Virus record (IMG/VR): IMGVR_UViG_3300037851_000671
Span: 154,773-218,772 of that record
Origin: a virus
Taxonomy: Duplodnaviria; Caudoviricetes
Length of the DNA stretch: 64,000 bases
Reading direction: 5' to 3' (one strand)
Shown: in pieces, positions 1-63,517 of the stretch
Numbering within the stretch: the stretch's first letter is position 1
How the letters are laid out: each line of letters opens with the position of its first letter
Position numbers and translations under genes: made by a program
The notes under the pieces: generated by a model
What the model was told of the DNA's origin: nothing
Database searches by the model: none
Seen by the model: only the letters and a program-made list of their open reading frames with translations

Positions 1-41
1 TCACACCGCCAGCCGGTCCCTTCACATATCCATGAGGGTTC

Positions 42-908
42 ATGACTTATTCAACCTTGACAACAAAAGATGCTACAGTGGATGATGGATTGAAATTCTA
101 TGACACTCTTTTCCATTGTCGTGGCAATGGCACTAACGGATCCACTACATTTACAGATATAAGCCCAAATGAAATATCATTGGTAGCATCTGGTCACGCA
201 CAAGTATCAACTGCCGTTACAAAATTTGGCAACGGATCTTTATATGTAGATGGTTATACGGTTGCTGACGGATATTCTTGTGTAGAAGGTGACAACGGAG
301 CTGCTCAAATATACGTGGGTAATTCTGATTATTGTATGGAAACGTGGTTCTATCTAAACTCATGGGGGGCATTTCTTATGGGGGCTGGTTTGGATAGGGA
401 TGGCCAAGGCACCGTATTACACGTTGATGCTGGTGGAACTCATCAGCTTTGCACCACATACCACATAGGAACAACCGGATCTGGTTACAGTTTGTTCGAG
501 TGGAGTATTGCCAGTTCTATTGGTGTTACTTTAAATACCTGGCATCACGCAGCTGTTGTAAGAGATGGTGAAATGGGTGTTATGAGAGTGTTCTTGGATG
601 GTGTTCCTGGTAGTTACTATTCAATTGGAACAAATGAAATACATATGTTTGGTGGTAGACTTTGGTTGGGTGCTTGTCCATTTGGTAGAATCAGTACCAC
701 CATGAATGGTTATCTAGAGGAGATGAGAATCACAGTGGGTAGCCCAATGTATCGCGGTCCATTCACACCTCCAGCGGCCCCATTTTCTGGTAAACAAGCA
801 TATCCGGCTGATGGTGTTACAGGGGAGGTTAGAGATGGTACTATTGGAATGTACGTATGCGATTCCCCTTCGTACAAAAGATGGACACGATTGAATGTGA
901 TAAGGTGA
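42..908 (+). CDS. LamG/concanavalin A-like domain protein, probably tail/fibre associated
   Basis: 'GNGTNGSTTFTD', 'KFGNGSLY', 'WHHAAVVRDG..MRVFLDG', 'MNGYLEEMRITVG..Y..FTPP' are typical phage LamG-like motifs. Confidence 0.65.
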   Translation: MTYSTLTTKDATVDDGLKFYDTLFHCRGNGTNGSTTFTDISPNEISLVASGHAQVSTAVTKFGNGSLYVDGYTVADGYSCVEGDNGAAQIYVGNSDYCMETWFYLNSWGAFLMGAGLDRDGQGTVLHVDAGGTHQLCTTYHIGTTGSGYSLFEWSIASSIGVTLNTWHHAAVVRDGEMGVMRVFLDGVPGSYYSIGTNEIHMFGGRLWLGACPFGRISTTMNGYLEEMRITVGSPMYRGPFTPPAAPFSGKQAYPADGVTGEVRDGTIGMYVCDSPSYKRWTRLNVIR

Positions 909-10641: not shown

Positions 10642-10712
10642 GACAGCGAAAAAAAAGATCCGACCTTTTATTTGGTTTTGAATTCGAGATGAAAGATCGG
10701 TTGCGCGCTGTC
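10642..10712 (-). ncRNA. modular Y-RNA-like element E1 (minimal, no tRNA cargo)
   Basis: GACAGCG-CG..CCGATC-TTTCATC..GGTCGG..TTTTTTTT-CGCTGTC; ends complementary. Confidence 0.75.
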
Positions 10713-10919: not shown

Positions 10920-11054
10920 GAGTAACGAAAATTGCAGGACCACTGTTTTTTGTGCTACAATTACAACACATCCAGCCTTTCGACCGGAGCTGGGATTCGA
11001 ACCCAGACCTCTTAATTCTCAATTTAGGATGAATGATCCCACTGCGCGTTACTC
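10920..11054 (-). ncRNA. modular Y-RNA-like element E3 (circularly permuted tRNA cargo)
   Basis: GAGTAACG/CGTTACTC closing stem; T-arm CTGGG-TTCGAAT-CCCAG; acceptor TCCGGTC/GGCTGGA capped by GAAA; D-arm-like segment follows. Confidence 0.85.
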
Positions 11055-11212
11055 GGTGCTTCGTTCTATGTTTCCACAGAATGAAACGAGAGCGTAAAGT
11101 AAACCGAGAATATTGATAGATTCTCGATTGGGGTTTCTGCACGATGCCTGCTTTTTTGGAGGCAAACGCATATTCTCGGATTGTCTTTGAGACAGTTGAA
11201 AGGTGTTAGAGG

Positions 11213-14236: not shown

Positions 14237-14899
14237 TCAAAAATCGTCCATCTGATCTGCGAATTTCGTAATTAGGTTTGACAGGGTATGAGGCTCACGT
14301 TTAATGAGTGCTACATATTCTGTTTTAGAGTTCACAAGCCAGTTCACAAGATCTACTGTGTTTATCGCATCAATCTCAGCAGAGTGCGCCCCAATCTTTG
14401 GAGTTATTCCAATACCAATCAGGAAGTTATTGAGACCAAACTTTACCTTTGGCTCTCCTTGAGCTGCTGCAATTTTTTCAGCAAGTCCATGTTTCTTGAC
14501 AGCTAATTGTGCGTACTGTTTTGTACACAACCAAAGGTCTGCCGGAAATTCTTTGTCACATGACTTCCAGGCCGCGTGACAGAACTTCCTATCAAAAGGT
14601 GCGTTGTGAGCGTAGATACATCTATGCGCTCTGGTTTTGCCATCCTCTTCAAAAAAGGCATCGATTATGTCAATGGCCTCTTTCAATGGGATGCCAACAT
14701 CAAGGTCATCGACAATTTTACCCTGTATTTCGAGGGCTTGTGGACTTGCCCGCTCAGGATTATCAACCTTTATGTCTACTGATAGCTGCTTTCCTGTAGA
14801 AAGTCTTATGACAGAGAATTGGTTAATTTGATGCCATTCACATTTTAGACCAGTTGTTTCAGTGTCTATAATGTAGTATTCTATATCATTCGCGGCCAT
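14237..14899 (-). CDS. DEDDh 3'-5' exonuclease (DnaQ-like)
   Basis: 'IIDTETTGL', 'AHNAPFD', 'HSAEIDA'. Confidence 0.85.
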   Translation of the reverse strand: MAANDIEYYIIDTETTGLKCEWHQINQFSVIRLSTGKQLSVDIKVDNPERASPQALEIQGKIVDDLDVGIPLKEAIDIIDAFFEEDGKTRAHRCIYAHNAPFDRKFCHAAWKSCDKEFPADLWLCTKQYAQLAVKKHGLAEKIAAAQGEPKVKFGLNNFLIGIGITPKIGAHSAEIDAINTVDLVNWLVNSKTEYVALIKREPHTLSNLITKFADQMDDF

Positions 14900-21458: not shown

Positions 21459-22985
21459 CTATACAATCTCAAGAAGGTAACGTATTCCAGACTGGTTGTT
21501 TGAATCATTGAAATCATATGTAATCATTTCATCATTCCTCAATGTCCCACCATTCATATCGGAGCCGGCTTTTCCGTACACTGAATGGTATCCGTTTGGA
21601 GGACATTTGAAAAACTGAGATCTGTTAGATTTGTGTTGCTTACCCATAGACACATCAAGCAGAAACATGAAACGAGATGAAATTGAACGGTTTCCACCTG
21701 TCCAATAACCTCCGTCGCAATAGTTTAGAGATTTTGTTGACTGCCAAGCAAAATATTTTCCATCACCAAACAAAGATCCAGTGTATACAGCTCCAGTGGG
21801 ACGAATCATCAGACCGCGCCTGGTGATACCAACCAGATTGGCGCTCCTGGTACCGTGCCAGCAAAGCCAGACATTGGCATCGTTGTAGAGCTTGACCAGT
21901 GGCTTATCCAAATCTGGACGCTTCTCAGGAACCCAAAGCTTGCTCTTGTCATGAGAAAGACTCTCGGTTTCGCTGGCAAACGTATGCCTCCCGTTTTCCT
22001 TACCAATACGCTCTGTGGTTTTGATGAAGGCGGCTTCTTTGGCATCCTTGCGCTTCATTGACCAGATGCGAGCTACTTTATTGGCGTCGTATCCATGGCC
22101 ACGAACCTTGGTGTCATTGAAATAGCCAGACAAGAACTTGAACAGGTCGGAAGTGGGATCGACAGTATCAAAGTCACAGTTGAGACTGAGATACTTGTCA
22201 TCAGAGCTGGAGTCCGCCTTGAGCACAGCGTTGACTTGCTTGGCGTCAAGTAGGGTATCCAGGTCCCCTTCTTTGGCAACGATCTTGTCCAGAGTATCCA
22301 GCAACAAATGACTCATCTGACCACGCGCGCCGGCCCCTAGATTGTGGGGAATGGTAGCGTAGAAAGTATTGGTCAGTGCAAGGATCTCTTTTGTATCGTC
22401 AGAAGACAACCTTTTGTTGCCATTGACAATTACCTTGGCTTTATCCAGGGCTTCACGTCCCTTATCAATCTGCTCGTTTGAGAGCTGACCCAAAGGGCAT
22501 TTTAGAGTCTGTGCAACGAAATTGGCCTGAGCACCGAAGAAGATATCTACAATGCGGCGCTGACCTTCGTTGAGTGAGCTTTTGGGTGCTGCATCCAAGT
22601 GTTCGGCATTCTTGAATACCACTGGCTTGGTAATCTGCTTTGCACCATCGCTACCAATAGCACGCTGGGCAACATCAATTCTCGTGTACCCTTTCTTTTC
22701 CTTGCTCTTGATGATCTTGTCCATTTCTTTCTTGGCTTCATCAAAACTGGAAAAACAGCGATACTCACGAGCTTGGACCTTACCAGTGGGGCCATACATC
22801 GTGAAGAGCTGAGCACGCCCACCGTTCTTTTCTACCTGCAACTCGGCATGATAGAACTTATTACTAGTACCTTTGGTGTTTGCCTTCTCGCCGGTCATGT
22901 CGAAGAAATTGAGTTCAACAACCTCTTTGACATCATATGAACCCTCATGAAGGATTGGGGTGTTCTGGCACTTTGCGGCAGCCAT
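21459..22985 (-). CDS. poly(ADP-ribose) polymerase-like protein (WGR + regulatory + catalytic domains)
   Basis: WGR-like 'NKFYHAELQ..LFTMYGPTG', 'CPLGQLSNEQIDKG', 'FYATIPH', catalytic 'WHGT', 'FGDGKYFA..KSLNY', 'NDEMITY'. Confidence 0.88.
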   Translation of the reverse strand: MAAAKCQNTPILHEGSYDVKEVVELNFFDMTGEKANTKGTSNKFYHAELQVEKNGGRAQLFTMYGPTGKVQAREYRCFSSFDEAKKEMDKIIKSKEKKGYTRIDVAQRAIGSDGAKQITKPVVFKNAEHLDAAPKSSLNEGQRRIVDIFFGAQANFVAQTLKCPLGQLSNEQIDKGREALDKAKVIVNGNKRLSSDDTKEILALTNTFYATIPHNLGAGARGQMSHLLLDTLDKIVAKEGDLDTLLDAKQVNAVLKADSSSDDKYLSLNCDFDTVDPTSDLFKFLSGYFNDTKVRGHGYDANKVARIWSMKRKDAKEAAFIKTTERIGKENGRHTFASETESLSHDKSKLWVPEKRPDLDKPLVKLYNDANVWLCWHGTRSANLVGITRRGLMIRPTGAVYTGSLFGDGKYFAWQSTKSLNYCDGGYWTGGNRSISSRFMFLLDVSMGKQHKSNRSQFFKCPPNGYHSVYGKAGSDMNGGTLRNDEMITYDFNDSNNQSGIRYLLEIV

Positions 22986-55074: not shown

Positions 55075-55079
55075 GAAAT

Positions 55080-55204
55080 AGCAACGAAAGAATCGAAGAC
55101 CTTGCTTGTCGGCTGCTCTACCACTGAGCTATGTGGCGGGAAACCACAGCAGGACTCGAACCTGCGACCCGCTGATTAGGATGAAGGATCCTCTACGCGT
55201 TGCT
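55080..55204 (-). ncRNA. modular Y-RNA-like element E4 (circularly permuted tRNA cargo)
   Basis: AGCAACG/CGTTGCT; GATC-CTTCATC; T-arm GCAGG-TTCGAGT-CCTGC; acceptor TGTGG/CCACA closed by a loop; D-arm GCTC-AGTGGTA-GAGC; GGTC. Confidence 0.9.
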
Positions 55205-55207
55205 TTG

Positions 55208-56470: not shown

Positions 56471-56622
56471 AAGGAACGAAAAAGCGAAAGACCAGTTTTT
56501 TCGCGCTCTACCAGACTGAGCTATATGCTGATGTTGGGCTTTATGAGCCTTGTCAGCATAGTTGGATTCGGACCAACGACCTCGATCTCCTAAAGATGAA
56601 TGATCTTTCTAACGCGTTCCTT
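56471..56622 (-). ncRNA. modular Y-RNA-like element E6 (circularly permuted tRNA cargo)
   Basis: AAGGAACG/CGTTCCTT; GATC-ATTCATC; T-arm GTTGG-TCCGAAT-CCAAC; acceptor TATGCTGA/TCAGCATA with inserted hairpin; D-arm GCTC-AGTCTGGTA-GAGC. Confidence 0.9.
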
Positions 56623-58139: not shown

Positions 58140-58289
58140 AGATAACGAAAAGGGCTCAGACGAAGTTTTTTCCAGCGTCCAGCCGCCGCATGTTGCCCGG
58201 TTTTACCCAGGTGGTGCGGCGCAGGGAAATCGAATCCCTGTCGTTTGAATTATCGGTTCAAGATGAATCGTCCAAAAAGCGCGTTATCT
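58140..58289 (-). ncRNA. modular Y-RNA-like element E8 (permuted acceptor with encoded ACCA)
   Basis: AGATAACG/CGTTATCT; GGACG-ATTCATC..CGTCT; T-arm AGGGA-TTCGATT-TCCCT; GCGCCGC-ACCA-insert-GCGGCG. Confidence 0.82.
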
Positions 58290-60446: not shown

Positions 60447-60636
60447 AAAAACCGGGGCTGCTCTATCCATTGAGCTAATCAACTTGTATTCAAACATTTC
60501 TTCGAACGGCACCTTCGCAAAGTGATATCCCTTTGCACTCCAGGCTTTAGCTTTCGCGTAACGTTGAGAGGAAATTGCCTTTGCAGGACTGTCATACATG
60601 TTGATATTGGATTCGAACCAATAACCAACCCCTTAG
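60447..60636 (-). ncRNA. circularly permuted tRNA-like RNA P1 with ~125-nt insert at the acceptor end
   Basis: GGGGT-TGGTT-ATTGG-TTCGAAT-CCAAT-ATCAAC-[insert]-GTTGAT-TA-GCTC..GAGC-A-GCCCC. Confidence 0.75.
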
Positions 60637-60680
60637 GGTGACCAGTTGGTACCGCCCCAACTACGACAGAGCCACAATCT
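60637..60680 (-). tRNA. 3' half of split tRNA-His(GTG)
   Basis: AGATTGTGGC-TCTG, T-arm GTTGG-GGCGGTA-CCAAC, acceptor strand TGGTCAC, C73. Confidence 0.75.
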
Positions 60681-62402: not shown

Positions 62403-62650
62403 AAAACGGGGACTGCTCTACCAATTGAGCTAATCCAACTTTGTTCGATAACTAACGCCTCTTCAAACTCGCACCGTGTGGAAATCGCGTTTTTCCGTGA
62501 CAGGCTTTAGCAACAAGCCATGCAAGACATCCCCTCGCGAGGGAGCTAACACGGACTAACAGTTGCGTAAGAGTTGATAGGAGACAGTCTTATGAAGCAC
62601 TGTTACTTATCGAGTCGAATGCCGGACTCGAACCGGCAACCTTCCCCTCA
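62403..62650 (-). ncRNA. circularly permuted tRNA-like RNA P2 with ~175-nt structured insert at the acceptor end
   Basis: GGGGA-AGGTT-GCCGG-TTCGAGT-CCGGC-ATTCGAC-[insert]-GTTGGAT-TA-GCTC-AATTGGTA-GAGC-AG-TCCCC. Confidence 0.8.
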
Positions 62651-63359: not shown

Positions 63360-63517
63360 AAGCAACGAAAAGATTTGAGACCCTGCCTTTCGGCTCTGTT
63401 GTGTATACCAATTCCACCATACCGGCGTTTCCACGTTTCCACCGATAGCGGGACTCGAACCCGCAAACGTATTAGGTGACAGTTTTACAAGATGAAAGAT
63501 CTCGGATCGCGTTGCTT
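63360..63517 (-). ncRNA. modular Y-RNA-like element E10 (permuted tRNA-Leu-like cargo)
   Basis: AAGCAACG/CGTTGCTT; GAGATC-TTTCATC; long variable region, T-arm GCGGG-TTCGAGT-CCCGC, Leu-type D-arm GGTGGAATTGGTATACAC. Confidence 0.88.

Follow-up and report, generated by a model that had tools for sequence, protein, structure and literature searches.

The closest described counterparts of the elements reported here are the YrlA RNAs (Rfam RF02553), which are found in Salmonella Typhimurium and other bacteria together with Rsr/Ro60. A crystal structure of YrlA has been published, along with the expectation that the protein reading its elbow is a tRNA-binding protein (Wang 2018, 10.1101/312249). 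YrlA is modified by TruB and DusA, which backs the view that the elbow engages tRNA-binding proteins. In Mycobacterium smegmatis, YrlA is cut by RNase P and CCA is then added, with the 7-bp acceptor named as the determinant, and YrlA-like RNAs have already been reported in 22 phages, including mycobacteriophage (Chen 2014, PMC4201824).

Ro60 proteins are also encoded by phages. Y-like RNAs adjoin Ro60 genes in mycobacteriophages, CcrColossus and phage G, and the Ro60 of Thermus phage phiLo binds two phage-encoded Yrl RNAs, Yrl1 and Yrl2 (PMC12135203). The locus described here resembles phiLo in combining a phage Ro60 with adjoining phage Y-like RNAs. In contrast, a part of that account describes the Yrls as stem-bulge-stem RNAs with a CGAA bulge and does not mention a tRNA-like domain (PMC12135203). 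In phage Bas63, the Ro60-like protein gp130 counters the ppl defence; the authors of that work suspect that the neighbouring tRNA genes include Y RNAs, and they show no RNA partner for gp130 (PMC11482910).

Yrn1 of Deinococcus radiodurans, likewise a Y RNA that has a T arm, shares a transcript with a tRNA and tethers Rsr to PNPase. Relative to the 5' end, its T and D arms are oriented differently from those of YrlA (Chen 2014, PMC4201824). Its inter-arm stem-loop also differs from the one described below, lying at the anticodon-arm position and not at the acceptor position. The permuted tRNA genes of Cyanidioschyzon merolae place the 3' half before the 5' half, retain the anticodon loop and yield working tRNAs through a circular intermediate. 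The phage modules, unlike these genes, are without an anticodon loop.

Permuted tRNA-like modules in a shared terminal-stem frame

The window, that is, the whole stretch of DNA analysed here, covers the final 64 kb of a virus record of 218,772 bases that is rated about half complete. The DNA runs listed for the sequence are two freshwater metagenome runs only, no RNA run is among the sequencing runs listed for either of two queries, and a near-identity search of a phage collection with 8 kb of the window as the query returned no match. All 31 tRNA genes in the window lie on the minus strand, as do about a dozen elements that have one common frame. One of these elements is E3; it and the other features discussed below are listed in Table 1.

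Table 1. Positions and salient properties of the Ro60-like gene, the framed Y-like RNAs and the unframed modules in the window.
Feature	Position	Strand	Properties
Ro60-like protein gene, 548 aa	12040..13686	-	986 nt upstream of E3, same strand
E3, whole Y-like RNA	10920..11054	-	outer stem GAGUAACG/CGUUACUC, inner stem GUGGGAUC/GGUCCUGC, UUCAUC, permuted tRNA-like cargo
E3 T arm	10990..11006	-	CUGGG-UUCGAAU-CCCAG; G53:C61, U54, U55, C56 and A58 present
E3 closed acceptor hairpin	10969..10989	-	7 bp, one bulged nucleotide, 73:-1 closing pair, GAAA tetraloop at 10978-10981
E3 D-position arm	10951..10970	-	loop AAUUGUA, U10.C25 mismatch; homologous to D arms of relatives
E4, whole Y-like RNA	55079..55205	-	tRNA-like module 55114-55170; flanks AAUCAGC and GCCGACAA conserved, at the anticodon-stem position
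E6, whole Y-like RNA	56471..56622	-	tRNA-like module 56504-56582; T loop UCCGAAU (C55)
Fourth framed permuted tRNA-like Y RNA	63360..63517	-	module 63400-63469; class-II-like D arm GUGG-AAUUGGUAU-ACAC
Unframed module	60459-60627 (listed also as 60459-60660)	-	without AACGCG/UUUCGUU; R1 36.3 bits
Unframed permuted tRNA-like module	62414-62642	-	149-nt insert in acceptor stem; R1 39.8 bits

The frame consists of an outer helix (NNNNAACG/CGUUNNNN), an internal loop in which CG stands opposite UUU, an inner helix that usually ends in GAUC/GGUC, and the motif UUCAUC, which is followed by a variable insert. On the minus strand, its 5' part reads AACGCG(N5-7)GAUCNUUCAUC. Paired changes in the inner-helix box preserve complementarity (GACG/CGUC, GACA/UGUC and GAGA/UCUC). 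The frame pattern occurs in four related giant-phage records in 10, 11, 9 and 2 copies, and the reversed pattern, used as a control, gave no matches. A variant of the frame is seen in E1 (10642-10711, minus strand), where AGCGCG...CGCU replaces AACGCG...CGUU, a compensatory change in the outer helix. The 3' strand of E1 enters a U8 tract and could end a unit made up of E3, E2, tRNA(Met) and E1.

Across the helices, G.U wobbles outnumber A.C by 59 to 20, and the RNA is therefore read from the minus strand. A plus-strand RNA, in which AACGAAA would resemble the CGAA Ro motif, was rejected on the basis of these counts, because the T and D loops are strand-specific, and because the tRNA genes and Ro60 lie on the minus strand. 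The possibility that the frame is a self-cleaving ribozyme (hammerhead on either strand, hairpin, pistol or twister-type) was also rejected, because its invariant words misfit the order and spacing of the hammerhead core; an Rfam scan gave no ribozyme matches.

Inside the frame, E3, E4 and E6 each hold a T arm, a closed acceptor hairpin and a D-position arm, in that order and on the minus strand, as the earlier note had described from the letters of the sequence. This stem-held order is that of the published YrlA design (PMC4201824), to which the note had likened it. Its statement that the three carry no anticodon is also correct: none has an anticodon loop, and neither ARAGORN nor the Rfam tRNA model calls any of them. 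We could locate each of the acceptor closures that it had distinguished. E3 ends in a GAAA tetraloop. In E4, the acceptor UGUGG(U)/(G)CCACA forms 5 bp with a 7-nt loop or, alternatively, 6 bp with a 5-nt loop. The E6 acceptor forms 8 bp around a 21-nt insert that holds the extra hairpin GGCU-CAUAA-AGCC. The anticodon-stem remnants noted in E4 correspond to the flanks UCAGC...GCCGA, which are paired at four of five positions and lie where an anticodon stem would be.

The arms of E4 are close to those of a tRNA, with a T arm of GCAGG-UUCGAGU-CCUGC and a D arm of textbook form (GCUC-AGUGGUA-GAGC). E6 has the T arm GUUGG-UCCGAAU-CCAAC and the D arm GCUC-AGUCUGGUA-GAGC. When folded in isolation, the E4 module is predicted to adopt the exact three-arm shape, and the E6 module is predicted to form three arms plus the extra hairpin. 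In E3, U8 and G9 stand between the acceptor hairpin and the third hairpin. A consensus scan flagged the E3 acceptor hairpin as an intrinsic terminator; this was rejected because such sites are no more numerous than chance predicts and the relatives have no U tract.

The anatomy is conserved, and its helices covary, across several phage lineages. In an alignment of 24 distinct modules, which was fitted to the model and favours structure somewhat, 96.8% of pair cells were paired, compared with 63% in shuffled controls and 32-49% in slid controls. The covariation score for these modules was 0.911 versus 0.245, and all seven acceptor pairs vary on both sides. Among 14 hand-parsed modules, the acceptor strand formed pairs at 6.86 of 7 positions when set against its own partner and at 3.59 of 7 when set against partners from other modules. 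The acceptor is the full 7 bp in 12 of the 14, and the offset between acceptor and T stem is zero in 13. Covariation of the Levitt pair (15:48) is the test that was applied to YrlA by Chen 2014 (PMC4201824); here, this pair covaries in all 14 modules (G15:C48 in seven and A15:U48 in seven) and switches inside the E6 orthologue group. U8, A14, U54, C56 and A58 are present in every one of the 14.

A covariance model, R1, was built from ten modules of other phages, with the window sequence left out. R1 recovered E4 at 50.6 bits, E6 at 49.8 bits, the fourth framed RNA (63360) at 40.7 bits and E3 at 25.6 bits (E 5e-5). False matches at junctions of adjacent tRNA genes, in which the "acceptor" positions are unpaired, reached 36.7 bits, so the R1 score of E3 is not decisive alone. 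The case for E3 rests on the perfect pairing of its acceptor and on its homologues. Against the Rfam YrlA model, which has a gathering score of 69 bits that no element reached, E4 scored 42.5 bits (E 1e-8; local, model positions 24-84, minus strand) and E6 scored 37.8 bits (E 3e-7; full length, minus strand), while E3 gave no match at E values up to 10. The E6 match takes in the stem and the A-rich 3' strand, AAAACUGGUC, opposite the consensus AaAcUuGuc.

Like YrlA, the phage elements comprise a terminal stem with V, a T arm, a closed acceptor stem-loop and a D arm in that order, have as encoded neither an anticodon loop nor a free CCA end, and carry a covarying 15:48 pair; the set of tertiary nucleotides is complete in E4 and lacks one member each in E6 and E3. 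The D and T stems of YrlA are nearly invariant. E4 has the YrlA D stem (GCUC/GAGC) and a T stem in which one pair is changed (GCAGG/CCUGC versus GCGGG/CCCGC). E6 matches YrlA in its D stem but not in its T stem, and E3 differs in both (D stem UUGU/GCAC, T stem CUGGG/CCCAG). Unlike YrlA, the elements of the window score under the family threshold, and their stem has AACGCG, GAUCNUUCAUC and UUUCGUU, plus an extra outer helix, instead of GNCGAAN0-1G. [quoted passage not shown] In further contrast to YrlA, the phage acceptor stems are mostly a full 7 bp, and framed paralogous modules number at least four in the window, where the majority sit within tRNA arrays at a great distance from the Ro60 gene. 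The 7-bp acceptor is shared with M. smegmatis YrlA, for which the RNase P cut and CCA addition are a precedent for E6-type inserts; however, the host and phage lineage of that RNA and of its mycobacteriophage counterparts are unrelated to those of the present virus, an uncultured giant phage from freshwater, in which such processing is a prediction.

The earlier list of copies was right for E3, E4 and E6 but was not complete, since the framed RNA at 63360 and the unframed modules at 60459 and 62414 (Table 1) were absent from it. The 60459 module has the T arm ATTGG-TTCGAAT-CCAAT, the D arm GCTC-AATGGATA-GAGC and the acceptor strands ATCAAC/GTTGAT with 116 nt between them, with GGGGC/GCCCC closing the entire structure. 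An origin of the modules by recent permutation of a resident tRNA gene was rejected, because the best matches of their 5' and 3' parts are to different tRNAs and involve generic arms only.

A Ro60-like gene and its genomic association with the frames

The product of the 548-codon ORF upstream of E3 matches Pfam vWA_Ro60 above the cut-off, PHROG 850 (E 9e-15) and, weakly, Ro60 in the PDB (E 2e-4). Its homologues number about 90, and some of the metagenomic ones bear the name 60 kDa SS-A/Ro. The TROVE ring domain was not recognised in it by Pfam. This protein is the presumed partner of the Y-like RNAs. Upstream of its gene, at a distance of 0.55 kb and in the same orientation, is an ORF for an RNase T/DEDD-type exonuclease (14237-14899, minus strand). 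Elsewhere in the window, a 508-aa ORF (21459-22985, minus strand) with WGR, PARP regulatory and PARP catalytic domains encodes a PARP-like enzyme.

E3 lies 986 nt downstream of the Ro60-like gene on the same strand, within the distance of about 4 kb from a Ro60/TROVE gene that is used as a mark of YrlA, whereas E4 and E6 are on the same strand as that gene but 41-43 kb away. A plus-strand ORF sits between Ro60 and E3, which makes co-transcription of the two unlikely. The 160-nt gap that separates E3 from the divergent plus-strand ORFs is the site of a 10-bp inverted repeat, CCGAGAATAT/ATATTCTCGG (11104-11178), which could be an operator or an RNA stem.

A search for related Ro60 loci with the single protein as the query yielded one relative, and an alignment was then used as the query. 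Each of the four genomes that have this Ro60 carries two or three frames on the strand of the gene, 0.7-2.1 kb downstream of it. A second arrangement is seen in IMGVR_UViG_3300009671_000009 (locus L098, 1890-3500), where an array of at least six Y-like elements fills the 1.6 kb directly upstream of a Ro60 gene that is 26% identical to that of the window. The frame in this array is different but analogous (GAGGCG...TACTTCG...cargo...TTTTCCTC, with the RNA frame words GAGGCG, UACUUCG and UUUUCCUC). Four of the elements bear permuted tRNA modules, including one of the E3 type and one of the E4 type, and the flanks AAUCAGC and CCGACAA are shared with E4. The E3 homologue in a distant phage does not differ from E3 in its T arm; its acceptor is capped by GAAA, and its D stem is GUGU/GCAC. 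Because frames adjoin Ro60 in four of four genomes and in the L098 array, there is good support both for a link to Ro60 and for an ancient origin of the subtypes; binding to Ro60 is what we infer from them.

Two further loci extend the comparison. Another phage contig (L099, 124-781) has a tmRNA gene (159 bits) and, at 153-214, a permuted tRNA-like module, both of them near a distant Ro60-like gene. The record IMGVR_UViG_3300035208_002255 (G001; loci L064, L074, L083 and L089) is 169 kb long, has terminal repeats and is rated complete. It contains 10 frames and at least five permuted tRNA modules, and no Ro60-like gene was detected in it by protein search, by tblastn of the fetched loci or with Pfam PF25045. 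The RNAs of this phage could make use of an Rsr supplied by the host, or they may act independently of Ro60.

The elbow, the acceptor end and competing explanations

We consider it probable that E3, E4 and E6 are phage Y RNAs of the YrlA type, in which the frame is a Ro60 handle and the tRNA-shaped domain presents an elbow. The position of the frame and its link to the Ro60 gene suggest that it is the handle for the phage Ro60-like protein. The tRNA-shaped domain is joined to the frame where a tRNA has its anticodon stem, and its acceptor end is closed; the RNAs would be made on the minus strand along with the phage tRNAs. The Y-like elements fill the tRNA-gene spacers, coming within 1-5 nt of the genes, so they are probably freed by tRNA-processing enzymes. 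Once freed, the domain would most likely offer its elbow, with the acceptor and T helices stacked, to a tRNA-binding factor. By analogy with the proposal for YrlA, we infer that this contact would tether such an effector to Ro60.

Conservation of E3-type and E4-type subtypes in another phage, beside a Ro60 that is just 26% identical, argues for this explanation. Several observations weigh against it. No element attains the 69 bits of the YrlA family, GNCGAAN0-1G is missing from the RNA strand, and Pfam misses the TROVE ring. In addition, the Ro60 gene is 41-43 kb away from E4 and E6 and has a plus-strand ORF between it and E3, and the G001 record, rated complete, combines 10 frames with no detectable Ro60.

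The claim that the three RNAs are elbow mimics holds for E4, holds less well for E6 and is weakest for E3. E4 is the only one with every elbow nucleotide (U8, A14, R15:Y48, G18 G19, G53:C61, U54, U55, C56 and A58) and, judged by its sequence, is a near-canonical YrlA domain and a complete tRNA mimic. E6 has all of these nucleotides except U55, which is replaced by C. Position 55 being C, E6 cannot carry pseudouridine 55, and the pseudouridine test proposed for the modules cannot succeed in it. E3 has all except G18, which is replaced by U. The suggestion that the modules could engage tRNA-binding enzymes repeats a proposal already made for YrlA, where modification by TruB and DusA backs it, and is reasonable for E4.

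For E3, the elbow is doubtful. E3 is the sole module of 14 without GG in the D loop. Compared with three homologues, it has two changes, G10 to U, which gives the U10.C25 mismatch, and G18 to U; one of the two helps to make a 7-bp hairpin (UGUGUUG/UAGCACA) in the predicted fold of the D region. The tRNA-like fold of E3 lies 10.2 kcal/mol above its minimum-energy fold, compared with 0-5 kcal/mol for the other short-loop modules. Together with the bulge in the acceptor, these oddities indicate that E3 is either in decay or a variant for which an elbow has become dispensable, and the folding predictions suggest that it is probably a derived copy in which the D arm has collapsed to a simple hairpin. 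It is less likely than not that this paralogue has decayed so far that tRNA mimicry is lost, leaving a Y-like RNA with three hairpins, namely the T hairpin, one closed by a GNRA loop and a plain one. The lack of any Rfam YrlA match, even at E values up to 10, agrees with such a loss. However, the T arm is identical in the distant-phage homologue, A15:U48, U8, A14 and G19 are kept, the frame is intact, and secondary-structure energies ignore tertiary contacts.

The earlier statement that the modules have no 3' end proved unsafe. A full 7-bp acceptor, stacked on the T stem, is found in 12 of 14 parsed modules, and the E6 insert copies the trailers and leaders of the phage's own tRNAs. This insert reads A73-CAA-hairpin-CAACA-U, and the element at 58140 is parallel (A-CCA-hairpin-CAACA). 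A-CAA trailers are present on real tRNA-Pro and tRNA-Leu genes in the window, and several tRNA leaders there end in similar A/C-rich words (-ACAU, -ACAC and -CAAC). The insert resembles a tRNA trailer followed by a leader and may permit opening by RNase P. Because E6 has this pre-tRNA-like insert along with a 7-bp stem, the RNase P determinant of Chen 2014 (PMC4201824), "sealed" may describe the gene and not the mature RNA.

An unsealed mature acceptor, mainly in E6 and its relatives and possibly in E3, is conceivable but on balance unlikely. RNase P would cut before +1, and the 3' side would be trimmed and receive CCA, giving a two-piece tRNA-like Y RNA for which M. smegmatis YrlA is a precedent. 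Retention of the same insert plan in five relatives is consistent with this outcome, as is the likeness of the E6 and 58140 inserts to real trailers and leaders. Nevertheless, the loop of E3 and E4 is just 4-7 nt, YrlA of S. Typhimurium is uncut, and -1 pairs with 73 in E3 and E6. Pairing of -1 with 73 disfavours RNase P.

It is improbable that the elements are structured spacers of tRNA operons that act as processing guides or exonuclease blocks independently of Ro60. Such a role would fit the filling of the gaps between tRNA genes and the frames of G001, and nuclease protection has been discussed as one role of the tRNA fold (Chen 2014, PMC4201824). However, frames cluster just downstream of Ro60 in all four of the Ro60-bearing genomes, and at least six Y-like elements abut Ro60 in L098. 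The conservation of cargo subtypes and the Levitt covariation also exceed what a spacer needs.

Anticodon nucleases of the PrrC, RloC and VapC types recognise and cut the anticodon stem-loop. Since the modules are without this stem-loop, the earlier idea that they are decoys for such enzymes is unsupported. That they serve as uncleavable decoys for these or other tRNA-targeting toxins is highly improbable. Its favourable context is indirect: the phage invests in more than 30 tRNA genes, and the nearest experimental hint of counter-defence is the action of Bas63 gp130 against ppl (PMC11482910). However, ppl is thought to act on DNA and the present data contain no tie between a module and a toxin. 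No RtcB was found in the available record, which represents about half of the genome.

Meaning for phage Y RNAs and tRNA arrays

The permuted design is already known from YrlA, and YrlA RNAs have already been reported in phages. The useful additions made here are a conserved set of subtypes and natural variants of a mimic on one common handle: the complete mimic E4; E6, which has no U55 and carries an insert like a pre-tRNA junction; and E3, with its collapsed D arm. Comparing the three in binding and processing assays could tell which tRNA features matter. The finding also bears on how phage tRNA arrays are annotated, since their spacers turn out to be filled by Y-like RNAs that lack annotation.

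A more speculative proposal, which we regard as a long shot, is that giant phages hold a conserved panel of tRNA mimics (of the E3, E4, E6 and 63360 types), each of which would be tethered to Ro60 and serve as adaptor or decoy for its own, different tRNA-binding factor of the host. The E3 and E4 types, at least, are preserved between phages with Ro60 proteins that are about 26% identical. Candidate targets would be RNase P, the CCA-adding enzyme, modification enzymes and tRNA-directed defence proteins. If this proposal is true, the Ro60 particle would be a programmable tool with which the phage seizes or shields the tRNA pool during infection.
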